A stretch of 64,000 bases of DNA from a virus (lineage: Duplodnaviria > Caudoviricetes), in the IMG/VR virus record IMGVR_UViG_3300024549_000205, positions 1-64,000 of that record; one strand, given 5' to 3'. A program made the translations under genes and the position numbers. Positions 10,000 through 28,800 of this stretch are shown here, one piece after another. The first letter of the stretch is position 1. Every line of letters begins with the position of its first letter. Below the pieces are notes generated by a model. The model was given only the letters and a program-made list of their open reading frames with translations. It did no database searches and had not been told where the DNA came from.

Positions 10000-10773
10000 T
10001 TATAAAGAAGTTATATAAGTGTTAAACGCATTTACAAAAGCTGTATTTTCAGCTACCAAAGAAGCACCATTTGCATACATAGATACTCTATGTGCTCCAT
10101 ACAATGAGCCAGAACGTAAAACAAATTGATTATTACTATTCATACTTGCCGATGTTGCTGTTCTACTTCCTTGCGTTGTAGCATTAAACAACTCTATGTT
10201 TGTAGAATTTGTACGATGTATTGATTTCATTCCTTGAGTAGCTGTAAAATCAAAAGAACCACCAGTTAACCCTGTTGTTCCTTGATTAATTCTTTGACTG
10301 CTAGTTGAACCTCTTATTATATTATTAATAGAAGCGGCTGATTTACCATCTAAAGCTCCAGTTCCACTTGCGGTATATAAATATAAATATCTACTTGCAT
10401 TGTTTTGTAAATAATTAACTCCTTGAGTAACCGCATTAAAATTCGTATCTATATAACTACTTGTTCCATTACCTTGAAATCCTTGATTAGTTGTGAAAGT
10501 TGGAGAATTAATTAAAGTTGATTGATTTAATGTAGGTGCTTTCCAATTTAATGTAGCAAAATTTTGTCCACCATTATTAGCAAAAATATACAACACATCA
10601 AGTTTAGTCCATATACCACCCGCTTTTAAAGATAAAACCAAATTATTTTGTATAATTTGTTGAGAAGCTGTTGGCAACGTATATCCTAACGCAACAGCTC
10701 TATTCAACACAGCTTGATAATCTGCATCAAATGAGCTATTTTGTCCTTGTCCTGCTCCTAATAATGTTAACAT
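10000..10773 (-). CDS. Putative virion structural / lectin-like beta-sandwich protein
   Basis: LKAGGIWTKLDVLY...GFQGNGTSSYIDT; Asn/Ser/Thr/Gly-rich. Confidence 0.55.
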   Translation of the reverse strand: MLTLLGAGQGQNSSFDADYQAVLNRAVALGYTLPTASQQIIQNNLVLSLKAGGIWTKLDVLYIFANNGGQNFATLNWKAPTLNQSTLINSPTFTTNQGFQGNGTSSYIDTNFNAVTQGVNYLQNNASRYLYLYTASGTGALDGKSAASINNIIRGSTSSQRINQGTTGLTGGSFDFTATQGMKSIHRTNSTNIELFNATTQGSRTATSASMNSNNQFVLRSGSLYGAHRVSMYANGASLVAENTAFVNAFNTYITSL

Positions 10774-10774
10774 A

Positions 10775-11299
10775 TTATACGTAAGTTAAATTAACAATTA
10801 CATCTCCTGCTCCTACTGCCCCAGTATCATTATCTGCTGAACCACTTGTAATAGCAAATGATAAACCACTAATAAAATCAATAGGAATATTAAAAGGAAT
10901 TACAATACCTGCTCCTTGTGTATTAGCTGGAACTGGAATAGTAAGCACTGGAGTGTCAGTTCCTACTGTGGGAGCTGTTGCTTTATCATAAAACTTCAAA
11001 TATCTAACTGTACTTGTAAGCCCAATAGCCGAAACAACATATAATTTTGATTGTTGTGCATTTATTGTATTAGCATTAGTTGACGCTAATGAAATATATT
11101 TATATGGTTTTACAGTGTTTACATCTACAACATTCACTGTATTTTCTACAGTTACAGGAACTGGATCTGTTATATCATTAATTACTGTTACATCTGATGC
11201 AGTTCCTGTCACCTTTGTTAAGTATTCTAATTGTTTTGATATTTGCCATAATAGATTAGAGTCTGTTCCCCAACCTATCTGTCTTGAAGGTATTGCCAT
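10775..11299 (-). CDS. Putative virion structural protein
   Basis: MAIPSRQIGW...LWQISKQL anchor-like N-terminus; YLKFYDKATAPTVGTDTPV jelly-roll-like C-terminus. Confidence 0.55.
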   Translation of the reverse strand: MAIPSRQIGWGTDSNLLWQISKQLEYLTKVTGTASDVTVINDITDPVPVTVENTVNVVDVNTVKPYKYISLASTNANTINAQQSKLYVVSAIGLTSTVRYLKFYDKATAPTVGTDTPVLTIPVPANTQGAGIVIPFNIPIDFISGLSFAITSGSADNDTGAVGAGDVIVNLTYV

Positions 11300-11322
11300 G
11301 ATTTAAATTTTTATTCGTTATA

Positions 11323-11330
11323 CAAAAATA
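11323..11330 (-). promoter_or_regulatory. Bacteroidota -7 element TATTTTTG
   Basis: TAnnTTTG ~24 nt upstream of the ATG at 11299. Confidence 0.55.
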
Positions 11331-11371
11331 AGTTTTTTTAATTATAAGTAGATGATTATCACCAAAATAAA

Positions 11372-11412
11372 ATAACAAAAATAGTTAGAACGAGTCTAAC
11401 TAGTTTGATTAT
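11372..11412. repeat. Inverted pair of the 18-bp intergenic motif
   Basis: ataacaaaaatagttaga (11372-11389) and the reverse complement of 11395-11412, ataatcaaactagttaga. Confidence 0.6.
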
Positions 11413-11546
11413 TTACCTTGACCTCTATAAAGTTTCTTGTAATTCTTAGAACTTTTTAGAGAAGATGTTTTAGATTTAGCATGAATTCCAGGTCTGCTAA
11501 CTTTAGTTTTCACCTGTTTCTCTACTGTATTGGTTTGTTTTGCCAT
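11409..11546 (-). CDS. Small basic YRGQG-type protein, 45 aa (not in the supplied ORF track)
   Basis: Translated by hand: MAKQTNTVEKQVKTKVSRPGIHAKSKTSSLKSSKNYKKLYRGQGK. Confidence 0.75.
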   Translation of the reverse strand: MAKQTNTVEKQVKTKVSRPGIHAKSKTSSLKSSKNYKKLYRGQGK

Positions 11547-11549
11547 GGT

Positions 11550-12017
11550 TTAAAATAAATTATATTCAAAAATGAATCCATACCCTGATGGATTATTTGG
11601 TTGTACAAAGTATTGAACACCTAAATTAAACTTAGGAAATTCAAGCATTATATTTGTATACAACATGGGTTCATTTAATGTAAGTCTTATTGTTTGAACA
11701 CCTGCATACCCATGAAGTTCAGGTTTCTTCCACCATCCTATTGCTTTATCTTGAACAGTAATGATTTCATCTTTCTTAGAAAGGATGCTATCTTTTATCT
11801 TAATGATCTCTACAAGCTCATCGTTCTGCTCTTGTAGATTCTTAATCTCTTCATTTTTTAGTAATAGATGTTGTTTGCAAAAATCTCCGTTAACAAGATC
11901 TTTAACTACTTCTCTAGCTACTTTTTCATTCAATACTATCTTTTTGATGGTATCTGTCTGTGAAATACTCTTGAAGCTCACTAATAGACATAGTATCAAT
12001 AACCTTAATTGTGTCAT
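11550..12017 (-). CDS. Putative outer-membrane spanin-like component
   Basis: Signal-peptide-like N-terminus, coiled coil, amphipathic beta strands ending in Phe; overlaps the upstream i-spanin-like gene by 92 nt; last gene of the lysis cassette. Confidence 0.5.
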   Translation of the reverse strand: MTQLRLLILCLLVSFKSISQTDTIKKIVLNEKVAREVVKDLVNGDFCKQHLLLKNEEIKNLQEQNDELVEIIKIKDSILSKKDEIITVQDKAIGWWKKPELHGYAGVQTIRLTLNEPMLYTNIMLEFPKFNLGVQYFVQPNNPSGYGFIFEYNLF

Positions 12018-12276
12018 GTTGTATTTGTATTAATGTTTTTTCTTTTTGAATAATAGTACTTTCACTAATTTTTAAACTATCAAGTTTATTCCAGTGTAGT
12101 TCTTCTTTTTGCTCAAGTACTTCAATCTCTTTTTCAAGACGTTGCTTTTCTTTTTCTAATTCACTATTCTGTCCTATTCCATAAAACAAGAATAGAAAGA
12201 ACAGTATAATTAAAATGGACCCAAGCCATTGTTGTTTTATGAAATTACTTATACGGTACATAACTTGTTTTACCAC
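11926..12276 (-). CDS. Putative inner-membrane spanin
   Basis: Single N-terminal TM (WLGSILIILFFLFLFYGIG) followed by a coiled coil; follows the endolysins. Confidence 0.55.
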   Translation of the reverse strand: MVKQVMYRISNFIKQQWLGSILIILFFLFLFYGIGQNSELEKEKQRLEKEIEVLEQKEELHWNKLDSLKISESTIIQKEKTLIQIQHDTIKVIDTMSISELQEYFTDRYHQKDSIE

Positions 12277-12706
12277 CTGATTTAACAGCTTTTAAAATTT
12301 GTTTACGTTGTTTACCAGTTGATTCATATGATACATGAACCCAATCAGGATTTTTATCAGTACCAAATTCCCAAATCATTTGATCAAAGTTTAAGTTGTC
12401 TTTAATGAACTTAAATATTTGTGCATTAGTTATTGATGTACCATCCATATCAATATCAATTGCTTCACCAGAACAATGCTGAGAGGACAAACTTCCTCCA
12501 ATAGCAGTATTAAGAGCCTTGCTTCTGTACCCTGATGAAATATGAATAGGAACTTCAAAGTGTTCTCTAATTGGCTGGAATATATTCTCAGCTAACTTTT
12601 TAAAATTTTCAATGTGTTCTGGAGTTGGCATATTGCTAATTCCTTTTCTCTTTGCAGTTTCACTTCTTGTTACTTCTGCTAACGATAGGTTTTCTGATAA
12701 TTGCAT
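12245..12706 (-). CDS. Endolysin, peptidase M15 family
   Basis: ISSGYRS...N..IGG...SQH..GEAIDID...DQMIWE...WVHVS. Confidence 0.9.
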   Translation of the reverse strand: MQLSENLSLAEVTRSETAKRKGISNMPTPEHIENFKKLAENIFQPIREHFEVPIHISSGYRSKALNTAIGGSLSSQHCSGEAIDIDMDGTSITNAQIFKFIKDNLNFDQMIWEFGTDKNPDWVHVSYESTGKQRKQILKAVKSGGKTSYVPYK

Positions 12707-12709
12707 AAT

Positions 12710-13168
12710 TTATTTTTTAAAATATAATTTAGATTCTGCTTCTCTTCTTGCTACAAGACCTTTCAAAGTTTTTCCTCCTGCTTTTACCCATTTCATAAAC
12801 TCTAGTTTAATACTTTCGTCTGCAGGATTAGCATTCACTTTCTTCAATAGAGTGGAAGATTTTAAATTTGCTGGACCTAAGTTATAAGCAAATGATACTA
12901 ATGCATCAAATTGATTTTGATTGATGTCATCTCTACAATAACTATCTACATACTTCTCAAAACTAACAAGCATATGTTTTAATAACTCAACTGATTCTGT
13001 TTCAGTAAGAGCTTTATCAGTCATTGTTACTTTCTTACCATTAGGATAGAATGTTGCTCCATACCCAATTGTTGGTATACCTGCTGGACATTTGTATGGA
13101 GCTGATTTAAACCCTTCAAAGGTTTTAATCAATTCAACACCTGCCACTCCTGTTTTAGTTATCTTCAT
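12710..13168 (-). CDS. Endolysin, GH24 lysozyme
   Basis: LIKTFEG...YKCPAGIPTIGYG...NQNQFDALVSFAYNLG...GLVARREAE. Confidence 0.95.
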   Translation of the reverse strand: MKITKTGVAGVELIKTFEGFKSAPYKCPAGIPTIGYGATFYPNGKKVTMTDKALTETESVELLKHMLVSFEKYVDSYCRDDINQNQFDALVSFAYNLGPANLKSSTLLKKVNANPADESIKLEFMKWVKAGGKTLKGLVARREAESKLYFKK

Positions 13169-13392
13169 TATTGTTTACTCTTAGTAAATTTATCAATTGA
13201 TGTAAGGCCTAATGCACCAAATGCAAACAAAGCTACAGACTCTACAAGAACATCTGAAGGCTTAATTAATTCATGACTGAATGTGTTAGCAATTAAAGAT
13301 GCTACAAGTGCAACAACACATAAAAGTCCTGCTACACGTTTAGATGAAACTCTATTTGATTCATCACTTACTAATTCTTTCCAAAAGCTCAT
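13168..13392 (-). CDS. Putative holin (2 TM)
   Basis: 74 aa, SSKRV followed by two hydrophobic helices and a basic C-terminus; TAATG-coupled to the lysozyme. Confidence 0.7.
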   Translation of the reverse strand: MSFWKELVSDESNRVSSKRVAGLLCVVALVASLIANTFSHELIKPSDVLVESVALFAFGALGLTSIDKFTKSKQ

Positions 13393-13394
13393 AA

Positions 13395-14150
13395 CTATTT
13401 AATTTTATTATTACTATTTTCTTGTGTGGCATATTTAATACCCATAATTGTACCAACTATTGAAAATGCGTTTGTCAATAAGACACTAAACATGTTACTC
13501 CAAGTAGACCCAATAATTTGAGTTTCTTTATTTGTTACAATAGCTGCCCAATATAATACAGTTGTTACAATTCCAACACCTATTATTACTGCCAAAGCAC
13601 ATTTAACAATCACTTTTATTAACTCACTTTGACCTTTTTTTATAATTACATCTAAATCATTCAAAGCAGCATCTTTTTCTTTCTCTATTGAATCTTTAAG
13701 TTTTTCAGATTTTTCCAACTCAATCTGTAAGTCTTTAGATAAAGCATCAATCTTGTTTTTACTATCTACTGTTTCAGTAATGTCAGTAGCAATCTTCATT
13801 ATTTTTGTAATATTACCCTCTTCATTAAAAATAGGATTGTAAGTTGCTTGTAAATAAATAGGACTGCCATCTATTTTTTTTCTTTCAAACTCTCCTTCAA
13901 AGAATATACCCTCTCTTAATTTTTCCCAAAACTTAACGTACTCATCAGATTTAGAATACTCATAAGTAACAAAAATACTATGATGTTTTCCAATAAGTTT
14001 TTCGTGTTCATCTTCTTGAAAACCCATAGTCTTTAAAAAGATAGAATTTACTCCCAATATAAAACCTTCTAAATCAAAATAAATAATAGCATTACTTCTA
14101 TTAATAGCTTCAAGACGACTTAATAGCTCTTCTTTAGGTAGGTTTTTCAT
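13395..14150 (-). CDS. PAS/PAC sensor domain + coiled coil + two C-terminal TM helices
   Basis: AINRSNAIIYFDLEG.I..VN..FL..MGF...LIGKHHSIFV...FWEKL..G....GEFER...DG..IYLQATYNPI...G...KIMKIATDIT, the PAS type of soluble chemoreceptors such as BdlA. Confidence 0.9.
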   Translation of the reverse strand: MKNLPKEELLSRLEAINRSNAIIYFDLEGFILGVNSIFLKTMGFQEDEHEKLIGKHHSIFVTYEYSKSDEYVKFWEKLREGIFFEGEFERKKIDGSPIYLQATYNPIFNEEGNITKIMKIATDITETVDSKNKIDALSKDLQIELEKSEKLKDSIEKEKDAALNDLDVIIKKGQSELIKVIVKCALAVIIGVGIVTTVLYWAAIVTNKETQIIGSTWSNMFSVLLTNAFSIVGTIMGIKYATQENSNNKIK

Positions 14151-14470
14151 TATGATGTAATATTTTTATATAATGTAGATATGTATTGTAATAAGACACC
14201 TATCCCTACGATTATACCTACAGTCCAGGTAAATCGTTTCTTAAACTCTTCTTGTTTTTGAATCTTAGTTTCTAAATCTTTGATTCGTTCTTTAAGTTCA
14301 GTTATGTCTGTAACAAATCCACCAGTTTTTGTCAAAGCATTACCTAATATAGCATCCACCACTTGTGTTAGTTTGCTATCTATAGAGGTCATTTTTTCCT
14401 CTAGATCGTATAAACGTTGATCCATGCTCTTCAATTCTTTTTCTACTTGTTGTTCAAATGATTGGGCCAT
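14150..14470 (-). CDS. Coiled-coil protein with C-terminal TM (XhlA/holin-accessory-like)
   Basis: Heptad pattern followed by FTWTVGIIVGIGVLLQYI; first gene of the lysis cassette. Confidence 0.6.
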   Translation of the reverse strand: MAQSFEQQVEKELKSMDQRLYDLEEKMTSIDSKLTQVVDAILGNALTKTGGFVTDITELKERIKDLETKIQKQEEFKKRFTWTVGIIVGIGVLLQYISTLYKNITS

Positions 14471-14567
14471 ACTGGTAAAGATTTTTATATATATATTACT
14501 TATTTAAACGCAAAATGCCCAAGCTCGAAGTTGAGTGGGTTTGTTGGTTACATATATAATTAAAGAA

Positions 14568-14575
14568 CAAATATA
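14568..14575 (-). promoter_or_regulatory. Bacteroidota -7 element TATATTTG (lysis cassette promoter)
   Basis: TAnnTTTG in the intergenic region; tataatatagc box 52 nt away, as at 15058. Confidence 0.55.
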
Positions 14576-14662
14576 AATTGTTTATTCCATATAAAGAAAT
14601 GCTAATATTATATTTCTGATATAATATAGCATAAGGTAAATATATTTACGTAGAGCTTGTTC

Positions 14663-15052
14663 TTAGTGAACAATCTTTAAAAGATCTCCTGTACGATATA
14701 TTTGACCAACACTCAATCCTGCAAATATAGCAGAAGCATTATCAGAATATTGAGGAGTGATTTTAGGTGTTGTTAATACAATACTCCAATCATTTGATCC
14801 AGCACCTACTGACTTAGCAAAATATAATATAGAATTAGTTGTATTCAAATAAAGCTGTCCTATATATGTAGCAGAAGTAGTAGGAGCAGTGGTACCAGTT
14901 TTTGGTACCAAGTTATTATTTATTTTAGCTAATATAGACTCAAGACTTTCTAAAGGATTGGCTTGTATATTAGTTAAATAAGAGCCATTGTATATAATGC
15001 ATTTAGCATTTTCATATGTGGCACACGTTGGGCAAATTGCAGCTGTTCTCAT
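14663..15052 (-). CDS. Short fibre/decoration protein with Cys-containing anchor module
   Basis: CIIYNGxxL...LESILAKIN shared with genes at 56917-60514; GTTAPT...GQLYLNT and AGLSVGQIYRTG fibre-like motifs. Confidence 0.6.
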   Translation of the reverse strand: MRTAAICPTCATYENAKCIIYNGSYLTNIQANPLESLESILAKINNNLVPKTGTTAPTTSATYIGQLYLNTTNSILYFAKSVGAGSNDWSIVLTTPKITPQYSDNASAIFAGLSVGQIYRTGDLLKIVH

Positions 15053-15057
15053 GTGAG

Positions 15058-15065
15058 CAAATTTA
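15058..15065 (-). promoter_or_regulatory. Bacteroidota -7 element TAAATTTG, possibly driving a leaderless mRNA
   Basis: TAnnTTTG ends 6 nt before the ATG at 15052. Confidence 0.55.
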
Positions 15066-15122
15066 TATATTAATTATGTATTATAAAAGGGTGTATGTTA
15101 GATATTTGGTATAATATAGCGT

Positions 15123-18100
15123 TTATCTACTTCTTGATTCTCCAGTAACTCGTATACCTTGTTCTTTAGCCAATTCTGGATACAAGTAAGGTAATAATTC
15201 ATTTTGAAATTGTGCAGCTACAGGAATCATATTAAAGAAGTATTTAGTAGGGTGTGATTTTTCAATCATCTCTTCATCGCCTGAAACTTGTCCATACATT
15301 TCTCTACCTGTATACCAAAACACTTGTGTAGCTCTACTTAAAAGCCCAAGAGATGGAATTACAGATCCTTTAGTCATACTTTCAAATGATAAAGGATTGT
15401 AGTAGAAAGTAATCTCATCAGACACTTTATTTACAAGTTTTAGATACCACTTGTATCTATTTTTTTCTTCTTCTGTAGCATCTTCTGGTGGTTCAGCTGC
15501 TTTAGCTGCAAGAACTAATGACATCATTCCAAACAATAAGTATAGTTCTTTCATTTGATTACCTATTTGTTCTCTGATAAGATCTTGGAATTCCTCTTCT
15601 GTAATCTCTAATTCTTGACCAGTCTTTCTAAAGTAATCTAATTTCTTAGCCTCAAGCATTTCATTAAGAATTTGTAATCCTTCATCAGTACCAGTTATAA
15701 TGGCTCTCATTTTTGATATGTTTCTAAACCCTACATGTTGCCAAGTTTTAACAAACGCTCTAGTTCTACCATATTCCCATTTATCAAGTTCTGCATTTTT
15801 ATCAATTCCTAACGTATGTTCAGCAACTAACTTAGGCATCCAGTTTTTGAACATCATGAATGAACTAAATATAGTATCTCTTCTGTACCCAGCTTTATTG
15901 TCTTCATTCATCTGACCATTAAGCTTTCTACCATATTCAATAATAGATGTACGAAACTTAGCTAACTCTGAATCACTCACTCCTGGAATAATCACTTCAT
16001 CATTTTCAATAGTAGCCACCTTATCTAATGAAGAAGATTCTTTTAATTCTTTAACTCTTTCATTAAATGATTTCTCTAAAGCTTTTCTTTCGCTTTCAGA
16101 CAATTCTTTTCTAGCATTTCTATCTTGTTGTTTTAAGTACTGAACTATGTTCACAATCTTACCATCTACAACCATTGAGTTATCGATAATACTCAATGCA
16201 TTACCCATTTGTAATCTTCTTTCAGCAAAAGAGTTAGTTGACATCATCACATCAGTGAATGTCCATGTAGACAGGTATTTACCAAGTCCTTGTTTCTTAG
16301 CTATCTTTCTTCTTTCTTCTGTAGTAACATCTTCATTCAGTGGTACAATAAGATCTAAAAGTCCTTTTTGTATTACAGTGAAACCTTTTCCTGTAACAAC
16401 CTTTAAGTTGTTCTTTTGAAATTCTGCAAATGAATACATTGTTCCACCATTAACGAATGCTTGAAAGTTGTATCCAATAAAGTTGGCTATAGCAATAAGA
16501 GGTTTAAGACCAACCGCAAGAGATCTAGTTAATGTATCAGCATTACTTAAAAGCTTTTTAGCATTCACTGTCTTAGCTTCTTTTTCTTCTTCTGTCTTAC
16601 CAAATTTTTCTCCAAACGTAGCAAAACCAACATTCCCTAATGAACCAAGATCTTGTCCTAGTTTGTATAGTCCATCTTCAATAATCACTTGTAATATATC
16701 TGCATTCTTATTTTCTGATTCATTTACACTCAACTCTCCATCTGTAAACTGAACAACACCATTCTCAACTATAAGACTTCCTTTAGATTTTTCAACAGCA
16801 TGTAATGTAAGAAGAGTGTTCTCTAAGTTCTTAGAACTTTCATATTCTAATAAAGACTTAACCCACATTGCACCCACCTTATTAAGGTCAGTAGACAATT
16901 GGTTCACAGCTTTATCTGTTTGAGTAAAGTATTTAGGAATTGACTTTCTCACTTTACCTGTCTCAGGATCAATTTTAGAAAGGTTTTGTCCCTCATTAAT
17001 TCTAGTTTGATAGAAGTCTGTCCATAAAGATTCTTTTGCTTGAGCAGTTACATCATTTGTCTGTGCAAACTTCTGAAGAATGGTAGCTTCTATTAATGGA
17101 AAGAATGAACTTCCTTGTTTATCAAGGTAACCCATTTGTCTAGCTTTAGCATTCAAATCGCTGAAGAATTGCCACACATCATGAGCAGCTTTATTTTTAC
17201 GAAGATCTTCATACTCTTTAGAATACTTACCATCTTCAATCATTGTTTCTCTGAATAACTGTTTGAATCTGTAATTATCGTATCCATCAAAGTATTCACT
17301 ATGTATATCTAAGGAATCTCTTAGTTTAGCTTTTCTCCAAGTACGTTGTAATGAATCTTCTTCTTGATCATTTGAGAATACAGTTTTATCAAGATCTGTC
17401 AATCCTTTATCAATTGCAGCCTTAGAAAGTTTATCATACTCCTCAATATTCATGTTCTTTAAAAAGAAATCTTTATCACGTTTCTCTCTAGCATCTTTTA
17501 ATTTATTCCAGAACGCAACGTCAAACTTTCTAATAAGGTTTAACCCTGTTGGAGACATTGTACCAATTAAGTCAAATGCATTCACTCCTCTTGCTGCAGC
17601 TTCTTTTTCTAATGGAATAAGAAGTTTCTCATACTCTTTCATTTTTCTTGAAAACTCAATATTCACAAGACTATTTGCATTCATAAGCATGTTTGACGCA
17701 AGCTTAATAATCTTAGCAGAAAGTTTAGATCCTTCTAAAAATGTTTTAGCAAAACCATCAATTTCTTTCTCAGCTTTCAATATAGTGGTTTTAGTCTCTT
17801 CTGTTGTGACTCCTTCTTTAATACCTAAGTGTACAGCATATTGATTTTGTAATTCAGAAATCTCATTCAACATTCGACCTGCCATAGAAGCAATGTGCTC
17901 TAGTTCTTTCAATATCTTTTTATTGTCATCAGTCATTCCCTCTCTTGTATATTCAGAAAGAAACACTTGATCCATTGATGTAAACTTTACAGCACTCACA
18001 CCATATTCAATTAAGTCTCCAAGCTTTTTATCTAACTCTTCTTTACTTATTGTATTATAGTCTATTTTAGCAAAGTCATCCAATGAAGTTCTTGCATTAT

Positions 18101-19874
18101 TCAAGAATGATTTACCTACAGTTACTAAAGGTTCGAAGTTTAATTTAACATGTAAGTTACGAATAGCAGTGCTTAACTTATTGATTTCTAAGATTTTAGT
18201 ATATCTATCTTCAGGAGATACTGGTTTCTTATATAGTTTTTCCCATTGCTCTCTCAATGATTTTACAAGAGAATCAATTTTTGGGTTACCTGTGCTCTCT
18301 GAGTTAATAGGAACTGGAAGTAAGTATAGATTTGTTTCTTCTAATGAATTTAGTTTACCTATTTCCATAGATGTAGGAGCAGAGAATCCACTTTCAGGTT
18401 TTCCTTCAACTGCATAGTTGTAGTTGATAACAAATGGAATCATCCTCGCTTTTCTTAATTGAGCAGGTTGTAATCCATAGTTATATAAAATCTTAGTGTA
18501 CTCACCCATCTGAGCTTTCCAGTCTTTCTGTTTACCCCAGTGAATATCTTCATCCACACTTTTGTTTACAGATGTAGTTTTCCAGTCAAGGATATCCACT
18601 TTAATATCATCTGTTCCATCTTCTTTTTGATAAGGTTCAAGAGCCATGAAATCAACTGCAGATGCAAGTTTACCTTTCACTCTCTGATTAACCACCTTAG
18701 CTTCTAATATGAAACGTGTACCTGGTTTGTAAGAGCTGATGAGCTCTGTAGCAAATGCTTCTATTCTTGTTTGAACTTTAGGATCAAGTTTAGTTGCTAT
18801 AGCATTGGTTAATGCTACATCTCTTTTATATCCATCTTTATCTATAAGATTGTTAGTTACAAATTTATATATATAATCATGTATTTCAGTTCCCCAGTCT
18901 TTCTTCTGATCATCTAAGAACTTCTGAAGATCAGTTCTATCAGGAAGAGTTTTTTTAAGTGATGCTGTTACAGAAGGAATTTGTTCAGGTAGATCATCAA
19001 GAACATAATGTCTTGGTATTTTTTTACCTGACTCATCTGTTGTTTCATCCACCACTTTTAATCTATTACTAAAATCTATAACTGTATCGTAGAGTTTATC
19101 TACAATAGAGTTTTTAACTTGATAGAATATACCACCATTAGTAATATTAGAAACTACTCCACCTACATTAGCAGATAACACTTTACGTGAAGTTTGTTGG
19201 AAGATATCTATATTAGATTTTCTATATTGTCCTCTGATGAAATCAAGAATAGTATCCCACCATTTTTGTACCATAGAACGTTCTGTTTCAGCCATTAGTT
19301 CAGGAAACTGTGTAGAGCCTTCAGATTGATTGATAATTAATTCAGCTATAAGTTTATCTACAGCTTCTTTTTTTATCTTTCTAATATCTGGTTTTCCATT
19401 AGCTAACTGATACGCTTTCTTTCCTTTATATGCTTTTAATGTTTCATCATAGATTTTAAATCTAGTAATTTTAGAAATCATTTCTGTAACAAGCTTTGGA
19501 TTAGTTTGTTCTAATATAGCTGTAGCAATGTGCACCACCTCTTCTGTTAAAGTGTATCCTTCCATTCCTTGAGCAATAGCTATTACTCCTTTAATAAGAT
19601 CAGCAAGACCATTGACTCCTTTAGTATCTATATCAGGATTACCTTTAGAATAATCTTCTAAAGTTACAATATCTAAATCCATTTGCTTAGCAACATCTTT
19701 CATCATAGCCACTGTTTCATTAGAAGCTTTTGATGCAGGATGTTCAGTTTGAAAATATTCTTTTTGAGGAACTTCCCCTTCGTAAAATTCCCAAAGATAG
19801 TGGGCCATGTTTTCACCTCTGGCAGTCACTAAGGACTGCCATTCTTGTGAACTAGTATTTATACAACTTATCAT
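15123..19874 (-). CDS. Large virion cargo/ejection protein with degenerate zincin and PD-(D/E)xK nuclease-like domains
   Basis: 1583 aa directly downstream of the RNAP gene; TLTEEVVH; WGTEIH...E...AVDFM...ILDWKT...QMGEY. Confidence 0.7.
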   Translation of the reverse strand: MISCINTSSQEWQSLVTARGENMAHYLWEFYEGEVPQKEYFQTEHPASKASNETVAMMKDVAKQMDLDIVTLEDYSKGNPDIDTKGVNGLADLIKGVIAIAQGMEGYTLTEEVVHIATAILEQTNPKLVTEMISKITRFKIYDETLKAYKGKKAYQLANGKPDIRKIKKEAVDKLIAELIINQSEGSTQFPELMAETERSMVQKWWDTILDFIRGQYRKSNIDIFQQTSRKVLSANVGGVVSNITNGGIFYQVKNSIVDKLYDTVIDFSNRLKVVDETTDESGKKIPRHYVLDDLPEQIPSVTASLKKTLPDRTDLQKFLDDQKKDWGTEIHDYIYKFVTNNLIDKDGYKRDVALTNAIATKLDPKVQTRIEAFATELISSYKPGTRFILEAKVVNQRVKGKLASAVDFMALEPYQKEDGTDDIKVDILDWKTTSVNKSVDEDIHWGKQKDWKAQMGEYTKILYNYGLQPAQLRKARMIPFVINYNYAVEGKPESGFSAPTSMEIGKLNSLEETNLYLLPVPINSESTGNPKIDSLVKSLREQWEKLYKKPVSPEDRYTKILEINKLSTAIRNLHVKLNFEPLVTVGKSFLNNARTSLDDFAKIDYNTISKEELDKKLGDLIEYGVSAVKFTSMDQVFLSEYTREGMTDDNKKILKELEHIASMAGRMLNEISELQNQYAVHLGIKEGVTTEETKTTILKAEKEIDGFAKTFLEGSKLSAKIIKLASNMLMNANSLVNIEFSRKMKEYEKLLIPLEKEAAARGVNAFDLIGTMSPTGLNLIRKFDVAFWNKLKDAREKRDKDFFLKNMNIEEYDKLSKAAIDKGLTDLDKTVFSNDQEEDSLQRTWRKAKLRDSLDIHSEYFDGYDNYRFKQLFRETMIEDGKYSKEYEDLRKNKAAHDVWQFFSDLNAKARQMGYLDKQGSSFFPLIEATILQKFAQTNDVTAQAKESLWTDFYQTRINEGQNLSKIDPETGKVRKSIPKYFTQTDKAVNQLSTDLNKVGAMWVKSLLEYESSKNLENTLLTLHAVEKSKGSLIVENGVVQFTDGELSVNESENKNADILQVIIEDGLYKLGQDLGSLGNVGFATFGEKFGKTEEEKEAKTVNAKKLLSNADTLTRSLAVGLKPLIAIANFIGYNFQAFVNGGTMYSFAEFQKNNLKVVTGKGFTVIQKGLLDLIVPLNEDVTTEERRKIAKKQGLGKYLSTWTFTDVMMSTNSFAERRLQMGNALSIIDNSMVVDGKIVNIVQYLKQQDRNARKELSESERKALEKSFNERVKELKESSSLDKVATIENDEVIIPGVSDSELAKFRTSIIEYGRKLNGQMNEDNKAGYRRDTIFSSFMMFKNWMPKLVAEHTLGIDKNAELDKWEYGRTRAFVKTWQHVGFRNISKMRAIITGTDEGLQILNEMLEAKKLDYFRKTGQELEITEEEFQDLIREQIGNQMKELYLLFGMMSLVLAAKAAEPPEDATEEEKNRYKWYLKLVNKVSDEITFYYNPLSFESMTKGSVIPSLGLLSRATQVFWYTGREMYGQVSGDEEMIEKSHPTKYFFNMIPVAAQFQNELLPYLYPELAKEQGIRVTGESRSR

Positions 19875-19875
19875 A

Positions 19876-22800
19876 TTAACAAATTTCTTTTCTAACTTCT
19901 TTTAATATTTTCCCAATTTCTTCATTACTATATCCAAGTTTAATTAACATGTCTATACCAATGTCACTTAAGTTATAAGACTTACCATCTTTTAACACAC
20001 GCTCTTTGGTTGATCTTGGTGCTTCTACCACTGGTTCAGCCACTGGAGCAGGAGCTTGAGGGTCGTTGTTTATACTTCCATTGTCATTATCAAAACCAAA
20101 CTCTTGTAAAAGTCTTTGTTTTAAATATGCATATGTCTGAGGAGCTTTTTCTTTTAGCTGTGCTAAACCTGTACCCAATCCATCTTTAGGCATCACTACA
20201 GTTTTGCCTGTTGCTTTGATTTTAGCTATGTCACCATCAATGATCTGTCTGTTCTTGATTAAGTCTTTGTCTGACATAAAAGCAGCTTCATCCATCGAAG
20301 GAGTAATTTTTGTAGCTATTCCCATAGCGTTAGGATTGTTTCTGATTTGAGCTTGGCCACCCATTCCAACTCTTTGAGTGTTATCTCCAAATACATAAAT
20401 CTTATCTGGATTAGCTTGTACGTCAGCAACAGAATATCTGTCTACCACTTCTACATTTTTAGTTGGTTGGATTGTAGCTACCACTGGTGTTGTTCCTAAA
20501 AGAGCCAATTCAATTTCACTATCTTCTACTTCTCTCATCACCTTCATAAATCCATTGTCTAATACAGATGGTCTAGATACTGTTGAGTTAGGATCCAAAG
20601 GAAACTCTTTACCGTAAAACTCTTGAGCTCTATATGAATCACCCCAAGCATTAATCATTTTGTATACATAGTTTAGGTAGGTTCTTTCAACTCCATTTTT
20701 ACCTTTGAATGTAGATTCTTGTATTAAAGGAACTCTTTTACCTTCATCATTTATTTTGTATACCTTTTTGAATAATCCTTTATTGACGTGAGAAGTATCT
20801 CCAATTCTTCTAGCCTTAATTCTTTGAGCTTTTGTAATTTGTCCTTCGTAAGAATATGTCATGAAATCACTTCTTCCTTCTCTTGAACGAATTGGTATTA
20901 CAACCATTTCAGGAAGTTCTCCATTAAGCATCTTCTTCTCTAGTTTCTTACTTAAGAATTGTCTTTCTGGGTAGTACCAATTTCCAGGAGTTGCTTTACT
21001 TTCTTGCAATCTTCCTTTCTTAAATACAACAACGTTAGTGTTATTCCAGTTGCTTCTCTCCATTGTATCTAACGTTTTAAAGTCCGCTAAGTTAGGGATA
21101 TTTTCTAAATTAGACAACGTTTGGTTGTAAAATTCTTTAAAATCATCATAAGGAAGAAGGTTAGTAAATGCAATAGGAGAGTTTGTAAGTCCTGATTGTA
21201 TTACAGCAAGTCTAACAAGCTTACCATAAAGATCTTTGTTCTCATCACCAAGCTTTTCTTTTAACTCATTGAATCCATAGATGATCATGTTTTGGTCATA
21301 CACCTTAGCGTCTTTACCTTTGATAGAGATGTTATCTGGACTAGCAATAAACATATTCATCATTTTTCTAGATTCCTTAGGTGCATATCCTAACTTCATC
21401 AATAACTCAAGACTTATATTTTCTCTTTGATATACATTACCATCTTTTAGTTTATATTCATCCAATACAATCTTTTTACCACTTTCTAATTGTAATGATT
21501 TAAGAATCATGTTGTTATGTAAAGGATGTGTTTCATCTTTTAACACCTTATCTCTAAATTCAATAATTTGTTTAGCAGCACTCTTTTCTGTTGAGTTACC
21601 TAATAATATTTTCTTAACTGAGTTGTTAAGTTTTCTATCGTTCTGTACAGCCCAGTCAAAAAGATCATTCACTGCTTTCTGAGAAATCTTAATAAAATCT
21701 CTATCACTCATTTCTGTATAAGGAGCTAACACTTGTTCCATCACCTTTCTGACATTCTTTTTATCAGAGATTAAGATTTCAGCAAATGCATCACGTACAC
21801 CATATATAACATTAGCAAGCTCACCTACAAAAGAGTTCTTAAGAATACTATCTACAGCAGGTACCACTTCATTCTTTTCATTTATAGAAGAAAACATCGT
21901 TCTTTGTGCTTTAGCAAGTTGCATTTGTTTCTTGAATACTAAATATGGATCATTGATTGTTGCAGTGTCAAAATTAGATCCTTGTGTAACTTGGAACATA
22001 TGACTAGCCATCATAGCGTATTTTAAAAACTCATCTAATATATAATTCTGTTGAGCTAACTCTGAAGGACTCATTTTCTCAGGAGATTTACCCATCATGT
22101 CATACAAATCTGTCTCATTAGGGATTCCATTTACAACAACATTGTCCTCTGTTAAATAATCATATTTAACATCATCAACAAATTTTTCAATGAACAACCA
22201 TGAGTATCCATTGTTTTGGATTGTTCTCAAGTAATCACGGATGATTGGTTGGTTCATGAAATAACCTACTGTGTTAATAGGCACACCAAGCTTAACTAAG
22301 AATAACCATGTAGAAGCTACATTAGGAGTAGCTCCCATCTCCATAATCCAAGGACCTTTGGAGATATCCACATATCCATCGATAAACTGTCCAATAGTAT
22401 CAGAGATGTATGTTTTGTCATCAGCACTCTTTATTTTAGATAGAGTGGCACGTTTAACTCCATTAACCATAACTGAGTTGTACTCATTGAAGTTAATTTG
22501 ACCATCACCTAACCATCCTGCATCTACTGGATCAACTGTTGTTTTTATTTTAACTGGATCTACATAAATAAGACTACGTTGATTTTGAGCATGGTTAGTT
22601 TGATTCACCGCAGCAATACCAATTGCATACTTACCTGTAACAAACGCATGTCTCAAGTTAGTCATAAATGCTCTACTCAACATGTTACCTACAGCACCAT
22701 AGTCAATCTTAGTTCTACCAAGTTTATCATTAATCTTATCAGTTAATTCTTTAAGATCATCTGCAGAGTTAGGTTTAATTAAGTTATCAAAGTTAAGGTC

Positions 22801-25800
22801 GTTAGAAATTAACTTCTGTAATGATTGGATGTATTCATTCTCTAATGACTGTCTGTAAAGATCATTAATTACATCTTCTCTTTGTGTTGAGTATTGTTCA
22901 GGGAAAATAGCTTCCATTAATCTATCTTCAGCCTCTCCTTTGGAAAGAAGTTTTTTAGAGTTTAAGTACTCATTAAATTCTCCAGCATCATACATTTTAC
23001 CAAACTTATCAATGGCTTCTTGACCTACACCTAAGTAAGGAACCACTTTAGGTTTTTTGTCATTGCTAGGATATATGTTTTTCAAATAGATTGACAACTT
23101 ATCAATATCAAAATCCGATCCAGCTTTCATAACAAGTTCTGAAGGAATAACAACTGAGTCTTTATATCCTTCAGGTAAGAACTTAGCTATCTCAAATACA
23201 TCAATAGAGTTTTGTTTCTGTGTTGGAATACGGAATGCCACACCCATAATAGCTTCAAACTCTTTCTTGCCTTCTGGATCATTATTGAAATAATTAATAA
23301 GCTCCTCATCAGACATATCTGATTTAAACCATTTACCCACCATTAACTGACAAACATTTATTGTCTTACCGTTCTCATTTCTAGTGTAGAACTTAAGTAG
23401 GTTAGAGCTATAAACATTCTTACCTTTAACTACTTGTTGCCCAGGTCTTTCTGATTCTAATAATGTAGAAGGAATCTGTACCTTCATACCTCCAGATATC
23501 TTAGGAGATACAACGTTCTTATCAGCAATAGAGTAAAGAATGTTTCTGATTTGTTGGTATGCAGGAGTAGCCTCCAATACAACATCTCCAGACTTAAATC
23601 CTTTTAGTGCATCACTGATGTTATCATTCACTTCTCGTTTCAAGATCTCATCTCTCAACGTGTCAGTTAGTTTATTAATATTACTTATTATGAATCCATC
23701 AGCAGTTTTTGTTATACCAAGTTTCTTAAGAAGAGATTTGTATCCATACTCTATCTTAGCATTTAACATGTCTTGGTTATGCTTAATGTCTTTGTATAGT
23801 TCAGACTCTTTTAGTTTTTGCTCAGGAGATAGTTTTATCCATTTAATGAATCTAGCATTGAAATCTCCGTTATTAACATCAAAGTCAATTGGCACACCAG
23901 CTTCCATAAAGTCTAATGTAGCAAGTTTAGTCACCTGAGATCCTTGTGTTACATAAGCTGCATCTTTAGAAGGAACTTCTGCTTGTACACCCATAATAGC
24001 AAACGGTATGTTTGATACTGCTTGTTTCTCATAGATGTTAATACCAGCATTAGCATCTTCGAATGGTGTCTCATCGAACTTACCTTTTTTATCATATAAA
24101 GGAGATATCTTCTCAGCACCCACTTTACTTCCTGATTCAAAAACAGCATAGTCAATGTTCTCTTTCTGCATCTTGTCATACAACTTGATAGCATTAGAGT
24201 CAGGATTCATTTTGTGAAGTAGTCTGAATGATAGAGGAAGTAATGCAAACTTATGTAGTACAACATCATTGTAATCTCTACCATTAGCTTTATTACCAGA
24301 CACAATAGGTTTTCTAGGAGTGTATGTACTCGCTACCTCAGGACTGTTTCTATCAAATTTTTCTATCTCTCTCTTACTAGCTCCTGATCTAACAAGATCT
24401 TCGTACGCCATATCATGTCGATATTGAGCTTCATTAGCTTCAGTCCATTCTCCAGAACGTATTCCAAATACACGATTGGCTTTTAACATAATGTATCCAC
24501 CACCATCAGTTTCTTTATATGGGTCATAATCTTTAAGATCACTAACACTCAATATATCTCCAAGAGTGATTGTTCTAAAATAATCTAATGTCATATCAGT
24601 GTAACCAGCATCTCCAGGTTTGAATCCTTTGTTATAGATTTCATTAAGAGCAGCATTTACATCTTGTGATCCTACTAAAAGAGCTTGTCTAGGAGAGTTA
24701 AAGTTTTTAATACGTTTCAACTCATCAGAATACTGATAAGGGTCTGAATATAATAACTTGTGCATCTCGATGTTAGCTATCATATAATTGATAGACAACA
24801 CTTGAAGTTGGTCTCTTAAAGTTTTTTCATTTAATTCTAACTCATTATCAAGTTTGATATCGTCAATAGTTAATCCTTCGCTACCATAGTATACAATACC
24901 ATAGTTTTTAAGAAGAGCTTCTGTATCTGCAGCATCTTTTTTAATGAACTCATCTACAGCTTCATTAATTTCAGATCTGAATCCTTTGAATCCTTCTGAA
25001 GGTTTTCCATTGTACAACTCTTCAGCTGTATATTTTCTATAAGCTCCTTTTGTTATTTTATTATTAAGCTCTTCACCTAAAATAGATTTAAAGAAACGTA
25101 AGTCTGTTGGCTTTCTATTTTCATTCTCAACTATATTACGTCCATCTCTAGCAAGTTCCACTTCAGATATAAAATAGTTTTTAAAGATTTCATAGTGATC
25201 TTTGTCAGCATATTCTTCTTTAGTTACGAATGCTAAATCATTGTGCATTTTAACAGCCCATTCAATAGCAGCATCTCCAGGAACAAGATTTAAGTAGTAT
25301 CCATTTAAGTTAAGATTGATTTCTTGAACAAGTCTCTCTTTAGCTGAAAGTTTAGAACTTTCTTTCTTTACACCACGAACTTGATTATCCATACCATCAA
25401 TGTATACAGACTTCATTAAGTCTTGTGTACCAGCAATACGTTTACCTGTTCCTTTTGTAGGATGTAAGTTGAACATCTTCTGCATCATCACACTTCCTTT
25501 AGCAAATACGTCATTACGTAAATATTCGTATTGTTTGTATGCAGGATTGCTTGATAACTCAGTGATGTTATCTAGTTTAGAAAGAATGTTGTGTAATCCA
25601 CTCAACGCGTTCACACCAATATAAGTTTGTGTACGTTCTCCATTCATGTTGAAGTATGTACTCTCGAATTCTTTATTTTCAATAACAGCCTGCACAAGTC
25701 CTAATTGGAATAAGTTTCCTTCTATGTTTAATGCTCTAGGAGTTAAACTAACTATACCTCTAGCAACTTCTCCATTAGCTTCGTCATTTTCAATCTCAGC

Positions 25801-28800
25801 ATCAGTTTTAGCTTTACCTTTATCGTTCAAATCAGAGAAGACTCTTTTTATTCCTTCTACAGCACCTCTAAAAGCTAATGCTTGATTATCAGTTAATCTA
25901 CTTAATGCTTTGATATTGAACTCAATACCTAATTCATTAAGTAACGCTGTATAAGTTGTCAAGTCTGAACCACTCAATGGCATAGACTTAATCTTATCTG
26001 TAGCATAATATCTTCCTGTCTTAGGTTCGTAAGAGAAGAATGTAGAATTAGATTTAATTTTGTCAACCATAGTGTTGGTCATATCACGCTTAGCTTGTTT
26101 AGCTGCACTAGTTAATGTTGAATCACTAACTACTACATCTCCACCAGGCATGATGAATACAGATATAGCATCAGCATTCTGACTCTTCATTGATTTCCAG
26201 AACGCAGTGATAAGTTGCCATGATGACTCATCTAATGATCTAACATCAATTGGTGCAGTAATAGATGATTTTGTAAGTCTTGTGTACAAGTTCTCAAAGT
26301 TAGGATCTCCTTTAGCCATTTCTCTAAGTCTATCCAACATATCATCAATGTTTACAGAATCGAAAAGTTTGTTTTTCAATCTAATAAACACTGAATCAGC
26401 AGGAATAAGAATAGCACCACCAATAGAAGATTTTTCAACTTTCAATTCTCTTTCTCCTTTTTCATTCACACCTACGTATGAAAGAGGAAGAGTTCCTAGT
26501 AATAACTTAACAGCACCGTTTGCTTTTCTGAATGAATCAATCTTTCTAGCATCTCCAAAAGGATCTTCTTTACTTTTCTCAAACTCACTAATGTCAAGCT
26601 CATCATTCTCATCAAACTGTATATTGAATGTTTTAAGCTTCTCTTTGTGTCTCTCAATAATAGATTCCCATTGAGCATCTACAGTGTCATATAATGTTCC
26701 AATATCATTGTATAATTTATCACCTTCTTCTTCAGTAAGACGACCATCTCTCTTATCTTGTTCTATAAGATCTGCTTGATGACCAATCACATCTAGTATT
26801 CTCACATTAAGCATTTCGTAAAGCTCTTTCTGTCTAGGTTTAACTATGTTGAATAAGCTTTCTTTTCTCTTAATAAGATCAGTAAGAGTAATGAATGTCA
26901 TCTCGTCAATTATCTCATGTAACTGAACAGCAGGGATTCCTGTTACTCTCAAATCAGAAAAATCATCAGCTGAAGCATTTTCAATATCAATCACACCCAC
27001 ATTAGCATAAGCTAACTGAGATACATAAGGATTGAATGTATTGTAATATCCATCACCTATCTTGTTGAATAACTCTTTTGTATTACGTTGAGCATCTTTA
27101 CCATAGAAGAATGACTTGATGAAATCAATCAATTGAGAGAACAACTTACCAATCAAACTCTTAGAGGCAATTGATTTACCTAATTTATCATTAAGTACAG
27201 CATCTCTGAATTCCTCAGCAAGTTCTTCTTTGATTTGATGAGCTGTCGCATATTTGTATTCAACTGTTCTACCAGTTTCTCTATCTACGAATGTTCCTTC
27301 TCTACTTGTAAACTCTTTAAGTATGGCTTCTTTTTCTTTTGCATCAGCAAACATTTTCCATACAGCTTCAAATACCTCGTGGTACACAGTACCTACCTCA
27401 GCATTTTCGTATATATAGATAGCTCCATTATGAAGCATACCCCAAGCTTGTTTACCATTAGTAGCTTGAATGATGTTCTTCACTCTGTATACAGGAATGT
27501 TTGGGAACTTCTCACCAATCCATTTCTCTAACTTCTTCCAATCTTCACCTTGGAACTTCTTAGCTTGTCTAGCTACAACAACACGCATTGCAGCATCATC
27601 AGGTTTTTGTCCTCTTTGTCTACTAGCAAACTTACTTGGCTTAGCAGTTTGTTCTGTAGCTGGTGGAGTTACTATTACTTCTTCAGTGCTTTTTAATGTA
27701 GCTAGTTCTGCATTTAATCTATCATTTATTAATTTACTTCCTGAAAAATAATCTCCTAAATAATAATTTAAACCTTTTATTGTTTCAGGTAAAAATTTTG
27801 GATTAAACATATTATCTGCTTTATCTCCTTCAATTACTTCTTTCATTAAGCCAATACCTAATGGACCATATCTTAAAAATGTAACATCATCTTTTCCTTG
27901 TTCAATTTTACCATCTACTTGAAATCTAACTGAAATTTTATTTGTAAGCTTTAAGTTATCAGATATATTTTGATCACGTAATTCAGAAGATTTTTCAACA
28001 GCATCAACTATAGCTTGAACTTTATTTGCATTACCAATATAAATAGTTATATTTTTTCCAGGTTGTCCGCCATCTTTTCCAATTTTATACCCTTTAATTA
28101 AACCTTTAGATTTTAAATCATCTAGAATTTTAATTGTTTCAGTAGCTCTACTTCTAATTTCATCTGCTGGTGTATCATCATTTTCACTTTCAAATTGTTC
28201 AACACCTTTAATTGAAAGATGCATTTTCCAACCTTTGTTTACATCTTTTTCAAAATTATCTATATTACTTTTTAAATTTGGACTTATTACTTCTTCAGTA
28301 CTTTCTAAAGCTGCTAGTTCTGCATCATATTTAGCATTGATTTTATCTGCATTAAGTTCTGCAAGATTATTTGGTAGACCAGAAGGACCTTCTAAACTAG
28401 CAAGCAATGATGCACTATGTTGTGTAGCAATTGGTTCAATATGTTTTGATAATACATCTCTAATTTGATCCTTAGTTAAATTAGGAAAATTATATAACAT
28501 ATATTGTTCAAACTTCTTAGGATCATAAGCTGCGTAACCTTCATAATCATCAGTTATGTAAGGATTGCTTCCTGGTATATCAAATATTCCATCTATAGCT
28601 AATGTTAGTAATTCTTTATCTTGTTCAGATAAAGATGCGTCATCAGAAACTTCTTGTTTTAATTTATTTCTAGTTTCCTCTAACGTATCAAACTGTTCAG
28701 CTACTTTTGTTTTTAAATCTTGTACACCTAACTTTTTATTTTCTTCAAGTTCAGCTTGTCTTCTTTTTTCTATATCAGCTTTCTTATCAGTAACTTCAGG

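Follow-up and report, generated by a model that had tools for sequence, protein, structure and literature searches.

The moment at which a phage lyses its host is a central life-history trait and, T-even lysis inhibition aside, it is to our knowledge understood as a clock set by the accumulation of holin. Holins generally fire on de-energisation of the membrane, and in the pinholin S21-68 and in lambda S105/S107, which have two or three transmembrane (TM) segments, a polar or small-faced helix lines the lesion and triggering is tied to membrane energisation. In bacteria, the LytSR two-component system controls the holin-like LrgAB/CidAB, with LytR acting on transcription, and in the receptor Aer an N-terminal cytoplasmic PAS domain is tethered by a hairpin of two TM segments. 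The same layout is predicted for a protein of 251 amino acids (aa) that we describe here from the lysis operon of a freshwater virus of the Caudoviricetes (IMG/VR record IMGVR_UViG_3300024549_000205; 75.8 kb, estimated 65% complete, G+C content 28-35%), of which positions 1 to 64,000 form the window, i.e., the whole stretch of DNA that was analysed. Its closest described counterparts are T4 lysis inhibition in function, Aer and AerC in sensor type, and VqmA-Phage and LytSR-LrgAB in concept. T4, with its holin T and the antiholins RI and RIII, is similar in that a phage protein alters the time of lysis on a signal, at the membrane and together with the holin, as far as the available text of two reports goes (PMC11413866, PMC8385771).

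An earlier note on this DNA had suggested that the protein is a captured host sensor converted into a holin or antiholin. We find that it belongs to a family which, on hundreds of viral contigs, puts a PAS domain, a GAF domain or a two-component pathway before one frozen membrane helix in lysis cassettes. We propose an inner-membrane signalling role for the 251-aa protein, by which it would gate lysis time from within the lysis operon, and give this proposal slightly better than an even chance. In the literature searched, which left subscription journals largely outside, neither a PAS- or GAF-coupled lysis protein nor phage-encoded histidine kinases were described.

The 251-aa protein and its invariant membrane helix

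The gene (13395-14150, minus strand) can be divided into the following segments, for which the structure was modelled with AlphaFold2 on the basis of 24 relatives:

14094-14150, minus strand: N-cap, residues 1-19, with a helix at 6-18 in the model (predicted local distance difference test, pLDDT, below 50)
13776-14093, minus strand: PAS core, residues 20-125, probably of the flavin type; W75 lies on the F-alpha helix, and residues 54-58 form a GKHHS motif
13617-13775, minus strand: signalling helix or coiled coil, residues 126-178, ending in A-x-NDLD-x3-KK-x-Q-x-ELI directly before the first TM helix
13536-13616, minus strand: first TM helix (TM1), residues 179-205, hydrophobic (mean Kyte-Doolittle hydropathy, KD, 2.11) and variable in sequence
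13521-13535, minus strand: short periplasmic turn, residues 206-210, placed by the model and the selection segments
13425-13520, minus strand: invariant block of the second TM helix (TM2), residues 211-242, amphipathic, the proposed output element
13395-13424, minus strand: basic tail on the cytoplasmic side, residues 243-251, variable in length and sequence, followed by the stop codon

The strongest constraint in this protein falls on TM2. In pairwise codon differences among 42 distinct single-PAS sequences, the TM2 block (211-242) differs at 45.8% synonymously, the highest such value in the gene, and at 0.0% non-synonymously. The next most constrained part is the N-cap, counted over residues 1-27 (43.1% synonymous, 5.1% non-synonymous), followed by the PAS core (37.2 and 17.0%), the coiled coil (35.5 and 25.7%) and TM1 (32.6 and 29.5%). 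A count over 65 sequences agrees, giving 43% synonymous vs. 2.3% non-synonymous differences for a stretch that takes in the two residues following the TM2 block. All parts of the protein are under purifying selection, non-synonymous differences being always fewer than synonymous ones, and since relatives are moreover present on 245 viral contig stretches, the open reading frame (ORF) is genuine. An explanation of the TM2 invariance by a nucleotide-level element or an overlapping gene was ruled out, as it is exactly there that synonymous differences are highest; the constraint therefore lies on the peptide and not on the DNA.

In the model, a PAS fold at residues 20-123 is followed by an unbroken helix (125-206), a short turn and a last helix (211-244). 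TM2 (211-238) is only marginally hydrophobic (mean KD 1.14, moment 0.89), with 11/13 polar or small residues in an arc of 0-160 degrees, and its polar/small stripe includes Q211, S215, N219, S222, T226, S230, G233 and G237, among others. The lysines before TM1 and in the tail, together with the model, point to an N-in/C-in topology with the PAS domain in the cytoplasm.

The earlier description of an intact chemoreceptor-type PAS domain lacking a kinase, methyl-accepting chemotaxis protein (MCP) or cyclase output agrees with our results. The protein matches PAS families only and no kinase, MCP, cyclase or other output domain in Pfam and NCBIfam, the domain is under purifying selection, and the repeated PAS units of multi-PAS MCPs share 36-53% identity with it. 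The two databases also reveal no MA signalling domain (PF00015) in the protein, and relatives with two PAS domains likewise list PAS families only, although the public annotation of many relatives reads "methyl-accepting chemotaxis protein." The 251-aa protein is not an MCP, and it lies outside every described holin family, with no holin match in Pfam, PHROGs (0 hits) or NCBIfam and no named cluster in the ESM Atlas. As a membrane protein with at least one TM domain encoded together with an endolysin it falls into the holin class in the wide sense, for which 251 aa is large. The further claim that its C-terminus resembles a holin/antiholin membrane module is not supported: hydropathy and the model both give two TM helices, but the likeness is limited to a small C-terminal hairpin with a basic tail, it has no holin family match, and TM2 is the same whichever holin family stands beside it.

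The PAS assignment itself is supported by several profiles, namely PF13426 (1.1e-10, 42.1 bits with a cut-off of 27, residues 22-126), PF08447 (36.4 bits, cut-off 25.6), PF00989 (33.2 bits, cut-off 22.6) and, in NCBIfam, TIGR00229 (1.5e-13, 51 bits, cut-off 22.9). The strands expected of a PAS fold are found in the model at 21-25, 30-34, 84-91, 97-108 and 114-123, with helices between them, and Foldseek assigns a probability of 1.00 to PAS structures of LOV proteins, MmoS and NifL. By sequence, the nearest solved relatives are the flavin adenine dinucleotide (FAD)-binding PAS domains of MmoS (3ewk, 6.2e-6) and of Aer from E. coli (8dik, 3.4e-3). A tryptophan on the F-alpha helix is the primary determinant of FAD binding in the NifL, MmoS, AerC and Aer clusters of FAD-binding PAS domains, according to the accessible part of Xing et al. 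(2023; PMC10468136). W75 aligns with the tryptophan of MmoS and Aer, sits in a helix of the model (69-79) and is invariant in 24/24 sequences. As regards secondary histidine or asparagine contacts, H57 lines up with the G-Q-x-H histidine of both MmoS and Aer, which may or may not be the one meant by Xing et al., and the asparagine of the N-R-R-K-D-G stretch of MmoS aligns with R90. With its FAD-type relatives and W75, the domain probably belongs to the flavin-PAS group and would bind a flavin.

That this sensor was captured from a host, as the earlier note had it, is not borne out. The PAS domain resembles a unit of phage-encoded histidine kinases, from related viral contigs, to the same degree (45% over 128 aa, E 8e-35), which does not bear out a recent capture and led us to drop a necessary origin from a host chemoreceptor as an explanation. 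Relatives on 245 viral stretches compare with only four close matches among 32 million genome contigs, all of them short contigs of metagenome-assembled genomes (MAGs) with inconsistent taxonomic labels and phage-like neighbours.

We also observed signs of mosaicism in the single PAS domain (13776-14150) relative to both PAS units of a 2-PAS form (P0004): the ends agree with PAS-A (at 19, 16, and 18 of 20 residues), and the central part has more in common with PAS-B (16 and 14 of 20), which suggests recombination between PAS repeats.

Linkage to lysis genes

Relatives of the 251-aa protein were found by exact peptide patterns, and the best 80 of the 245 viral stretches were analysed as loci. 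Their genes were called and clustered using simple gene and TM calls, and cluster representatives were named by Pfam and PHROGs. Whether homologs consistently adjoin holin or endolysin genes had been set beforehand as a test of the lysis idea, and they do: 48 of the 80 loci have an endolysin-class gene as direct neighbor, a further 14 have one at a distance of up to two genes and another 8 of up to three, making 70/80 altogether; in one locus it lies further off, and in nine it was not seen. When recognised holins are counted as well, 73 of the 80 loci have an endolysin or a holin at most three genes away. In the remaining seven the module gene is the last on its contig, and three of these show a cut M15 or GH24 gene at the contig end (tblastn).

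The lysis genes in question are of several kinds. The nearest endolysin is of the M15 type in 29 loci, GH19 in 29, GH24 in 10 and a peptidoglycan (PG)-binding protein in 2, and a holin-family gene, belonging either to a 2-TM cluster or to the unrelated Phage_holin_4_1, was found within three genes in 52/80 loci, directly adjacent in 32 and unrecognisable in 28. Family assignments of neighbors were confirmed for GH19 (phrog_181, 4.2e-61), Phage_holin_4_1 (PF05105, 7.5e-10 and 6.9e-7) and PG_binding_1. In a maximum-likelihood tree of the 71 distinct proteins, the nearest endolysin type switches at least 19 times and the side on which it lies, upstream or downstream, 7 times; even if only well-supported branches are considered, at least 9 changes are needed for M15 and at least 8 for GH19. 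The PAS gene therefore holds its position in the lysis cassette while its surroundings are exchanged.

In the window, the gene lies in a compact operon with the gene order and tight spacing that had been noted before, all junctions on the minus strand being as described:

14150-14470, minus strand: 106-aa protein, first gene of the operon, XhlA-like, a coiled coil at the N-terminus and a TM segment at the C-terminus (hydrophobic window at residues 80-101)
13395-14150, minus strand: 251-aa PAS/2-TM protein, overlapping the 106-aa gene by 1 nucleotide (nt)
13168-13392, minus strand: 74-aa protein with two TM segments and a charged C-terminus, candidate canonical holin, after a gap of 2 nt
12710-13168, minus strand: GH24 lysozyme-type endolysin without TM segment or signal sequence, overlapping by 1 nt (PF00959, 4.5e-42; phrog_7 endolysin, 4.5e-53)
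12245-12706, minus strand: M15 peptidase-type endolysin, second lysin of the cassette, after a gap of 3 nt (PF08291, 3.7e-20; phrog_894 endolysin, 2.4e-39)
11926-12276, minus strand: 116-aa i-spanin-like protein, coiled coil with an N-terminal TM segment at about residues 12-40 (weak match to phrog_1026 Rz-like spanin, 0.0043)
11550-12017, minus strand: 155-aa possible o-spanin partner with a hydrophobic N-terminus, from a conserved cluster (13 relatives) that trails the endolysin in relatives

The order is thus XhlA-like gene, PAS gene, 2-TM holin candidate, GH24, M15 and a spanin-like pair, whose two genes overlap each other by 92 nt. In phage PBSX (XhlA-XhlB-XlyA), a protein with a coiled coil and a C-terminal TM segment is encoded just before holin and lysin, like the 106-aa gene here. 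The resemblance of the 106-aa protein to known families is weak, with a match to phrog_937 "hemolysin" (2.2e-6) in PHROGs and a score below the cut-off of the Pfam XhlA family PF10779 (19.3 bits vs. 34.7, E 0.0013), so that we call it XhlA-like without assigning it to that family. The 74-aa protein has no family match in Pfam, PHROGs or NCBIfam and is a holin candidate because of its size, topology and position; its cluster has 43 relatives among 86 clustered loci (80 viral and 6 from genomes). Similarly, the 155-aa protein is assigned its possible role from position, as it has no match in the same three databases. The tandem of GH24 and M15 endolysins (12245-13168) recurs among the 80 related viral loci only in L008 and L009, all others having one lysin beside the PAS gene.

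An AT-rich spacer of 192 nt (14471-14662) precedes the operon. Some 95 nt before the first start codon it has the sequence TATATTTG, a possible instance of the TAnnTTTG -7 motif of Bacteroidota promoters. A promoter scan of 11000-15500 is uninformative, giving 22 promoter-like sites where 24.5 were expected with a sigma-70 consensus of doubtful validity for this host, and a terminator scan of the same region gave two terminator-like sites, both on the non-coding strand and none on the coding strand. A contig of 30.9 kb from a riverine library recorded as RNA (X1) holds the whole region 10000-16000 without differences at a depth of 56, RNA and carried-over DNA being indistinguishable here, and contigs of two further libraries recorded as RNA, in which DNA may equally be present, hold short identical pieces of the region.

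Tail-fibre-like genes were found on both flanks of the operon (10000-10773 and 14663-15052), and the downstream one is 73% identical at the DNA level to the "putative YapH protein" of Flavobacterium phage vB_FspP_elemoA, which is the sole hint of the host. Elsewhere in the window there are large minus-strand ORFs at 19876-35034 (5052 aa), 41125-46161 (1678 aa), 47027-52357 (1776 aa) and 15123-19874 (1583 aa). The 1583-aa protein and two others (896 and 1100 aa) had no PHROG match at 1e-5.

The proposed output module and its exchangeable inputs

An exhaustive HMMER search with residues 131-251 against 1.84 billion representatives returned 101 representative proteins, 70 of them at E<=1e-10. The module lies at, or at most about 40 residues from, the C-terminus in the 22 proteins that were read, and the match coordinates of the others mostly agree. 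TM2 is almost unchanged at overall identities of 30-60%, and the invariant columns of the superfamily are concentrated in it; the motif that closes the signalling helix is also conserved throughout. By contrast to this constant end, what precedes the module varies: one or two PAS domains of the same type, a PAS domain of another type, a GAF domain (PF01590, 2.5e-17), nothing beyond the coiled coil or, most commonly, a small domain of about 36 residues. For this last form a model (pLDDT 90.5) shows the same layout, with one very long helix and the hairpin. Odd N-terminal pieces, which could be further inputs or artefacts of gene calling, are found in P0257, P0245, and P0246: a fragment of a SOUL heme-binding domain (PF04832, 1.2e-19), a weakly matching C2H2 zinc finger and a start resembling that of a dehydrogenase.

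The module has no named family in Pfam, PHROGs, NCBIfam or PADLOC (best PADLOC match 15.6 bits, E 0.0021), and the ESM Atlas returned only unnamed viral clusters for it, with scores of at most 0.88. In 50,697 deposited phage records, tblastn with the 251-aa protein found three records that match in the PAS part only, the best of which (MT836939) was rejected as a relative, being a high-GC contig with an ordinary PAS-PAS-MCP gene; the same search with the small-N-domain form P0250 had no match, one family member having been used as query in each search. The module family is large, unnamed and almost entirely found on viral contigs.

The small-N-domain form sits on large viral contigs of up to 430 kb and in a conserved gene order, in which the module protein comes after, first, one or two membrane-bound histidine kinases (GAF+PAS+PAS+HATPase_c) and then a 143-aa response regulator with a receiver domain only (PF00072), and is followed by small TM proteins and often a GH19 endolysin. 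Examples from loci L090-L169 are L098:605-2728 and L098:3285-4568, and L119:1365-1796; in some loci the order is GH19, kinase, regulator, module and holin. Judged from their domains, the kinases and the receiver upstream of the module are predicted to form a complete phage-borne two-component pathway. The distribution of the regulator was counted over 308 loci, the best 80 at most being taken from each search, with 176 distinct module proteins, which are related sequences and not independent events. A regulator gene immediately precedes that of the module for 96/98 assessable proteins of the small-N-domain form, 0/67 of the PAS-fused and 0/3 of the GAF-fused form, and the 75.8-kb source record contains no Response_reg match. 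Such an either/or pattern of fused sensor or regulator would be expected of an output module fed by one of two sources, a fused sensor or a phosphorylated receiver. As to lysis genes, 64/71 PAS-fused and 2/3 GAF-fused proteins have an endolysin at most three genes away. The coiled coil and the two TM helices are thus best explained as the family-defining output element, with PAS, GAF or a phage two-component system as its exchangeable inputs.

A class II aminoacyl-tRNA-synthetase-like protein (PF00152, 2.2e-16) and, as recognised by eye, a DnaK-like protein were observed beside the kinase-regulator-module cluster (L161:5881-6714, L091:8694-10559).

Proposed gating of lysis time, rival explanations and known systems

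It is somewhat more likely than not, in our view, that the 251-aa protein controls the timing of lysis at all. As to how it would act, the flavin-PAS domain may report the redox or energy state of the cytoplasm, and the long signalling helix, being continuous with TM1, would pass the state of the PAS domain on to the hairpin. The hairpin would then shift the moment of lysis by acting on the membrane without the need of a specific holin: the polar face of TM2 might oligomerise into a small, depolarising, pinholin-like channel or engage a conserved membrane target of the host, and the phage's own holin, of whichever family, would be triggered or held back by the state of the sensor. We favour such holin-independent action over binding of a holin as an antiholin, because an invariant TM2 stands beside holins of two unrelated families, either of which is also found with each main TM1 class; as a specific version it is tentative and falls short of an even chance. 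More doubtful still, but interesting to speculate upon, is whether the module represents a new class of signal-gated lysis trigger, a pinholin-like "sensor holin" opened by a flavin-PAS domain, a GAF domain or a phosphorelay from kinase to receiver.

Several points weigh against the gating of lysis by this protein. The module is linked to lysis through gene neighborhood only and has no homology to lysis proteins, and accessory genes are known to settle in lysis cassettes. The linkage is looser for the small-N-domain form, with an endolysin within three genes for 39/99 proteins and within five for 52/99. The relatives were retrieved by exact peptide patterns, one of which, at residues 236-243, covers the end of the TM2 block and inflates the apparent invariance there, and the 80 PAS-type loci are not independent, since all are at least 71% identical. 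The model of the 251-aa protein is of moderate confidence (pLDDT 69). Concerning the flavin, W75 is the one contact on which the assignment draws; the segment around the RHPD motif matters for FAD in Aer, and it aligns with unlike residues here.

These points leave room for other roles. One is that of a holin or pinholin in its own right, with a cytoplasmic domain for regulation, the 251-aa protein being the primary hole former in some phages at least. Its C-terminal hairpin with the basic tail and an amphipathic TM2, half of whose face is polar or small, would be compatible with this, and in two loci (L077 and L079) no other ORF of at least 45 aa with a hydrophobic segment was found near the GH19 endolysin. 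But these two loci are short, so that a holin may lie beyond them, most other loci have another holin candidate, no known holin family is matched, and proteins of 250-370 aa would be large for a holin, which makes us regard this role as unlikely.

We judge it equally unlikely that the protein has nothing to do with lysis and is an accessory membrane-tethered sensor, acting for instance in superinfection exclusion, on host respiration, envelope or behaviour, or in defence or counter-defence. Such a role would be compatible with the evidence on lysis, which is positional; accessory genes are often found by lysis cassettes, layouts of a sensor with a TM effector are typical of abortive infection, and in the two-component branch the module keeps much more closely to its regulator than to an endolysin. 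Against it stand the position of the gene inside the operon and not at its edge, an adjacency to lysis genes that outlasts the exchanges of endolysin type and the changes of side counted above, and the very low best score in PADLOC.

Somewhat less likely again is a classical antiholin, in which the hairpin would bind the 74-aa holin and block its holes until the state of the PAS domain changes. Antiholins are usually encoded alongside their holins, and the PAS gene does stand 2 nt upstream of the holin candidate, with a holin-family gene nearby in most loci. But a frozen TM2 is unexpected for an antiholin, because such a partner would have to fit all holins that occur next to it, those of two unrelated families as well as the unrecognisable ones, and the cluster of the 74-aa protein is itself poorly conserved (mean column identity 32%). 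TM1, the variable helix with two main sequence classes, shows no clear coupling either: the YS class occurs 4 times with one and 6 times with the other holin family, the YW class 27 and 6 times, and class and family are not strictly tied. A complex prediction for the module (A3, residues 25-121) and the 74-aa protein (A2) scored 0.00 against a mark of 0.32, which we give no weight in either direction with regard to binding. Finally, a degenerate, functionless remnant of a host chemoreceptor, as the MCP labels of many relatives might suggest, has a negligible probability and is refuted by purifying selection in every segment, the missing MA domain, the intact genes on hundreds of viral contigs and a C-terminal module conserved far beyond the PAS-bearing forms.

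Should the module affect lysis, environmental phages would couple their burst to the physiology of the host, phage-encoded histidine kinases and receiver proteins would gain a first function, and the family would offer a compact, modular switch from sensor to membrane. If it even were a "sensor holin," many freshwater phages, probably of Bacteroidota, would decide on their burst by the redox or energy state of the host and not by holin accumulation alone.

The described systems compare with the 251-aa protein as follows. Pinholin S21-68 and lambda S105/S107 have no sensor domain, are timed by concentration and N-terminal charge, and show no homology to the 251-aa protein. In T4, RI senses the superinfection signal with a periplasmic domain and binds holin T specifically, according to the parts of the reports cited above that were available, whereas the 251-aa protein has a cytoplasmic PAS domain, an unrelated sequence and an output helix that is invariant across holins. 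Aer, AerC of Azospirillum, MmoS and NifL share the PAS type and the conserved F-alpha tryptophan (PMC10468136, as far as its available text goes). Unlike Aer, however, the 251-aa protein has neither HAMP nor MA domain and ends after TM2, and its hairpin is its most conserved part rather than a mere anchor. VqmA-Phage of vibriophage VP882 is, in the accessible text (PMC8284805), likewise a phage PAS receptor through which a small-molecule signal governs whether the host is killed, but as a soluble, DNA-binding transcription factor in the switch from lysogeny to lysis, whereas the output here would be a membrane hairpin in the lysis operon. The relatives with kinase, regulator and module parallel LytSR, with a module that is unrelated to LrgA or CidA, and since the phage regulator is receiver-only, it must act from protein to protein.

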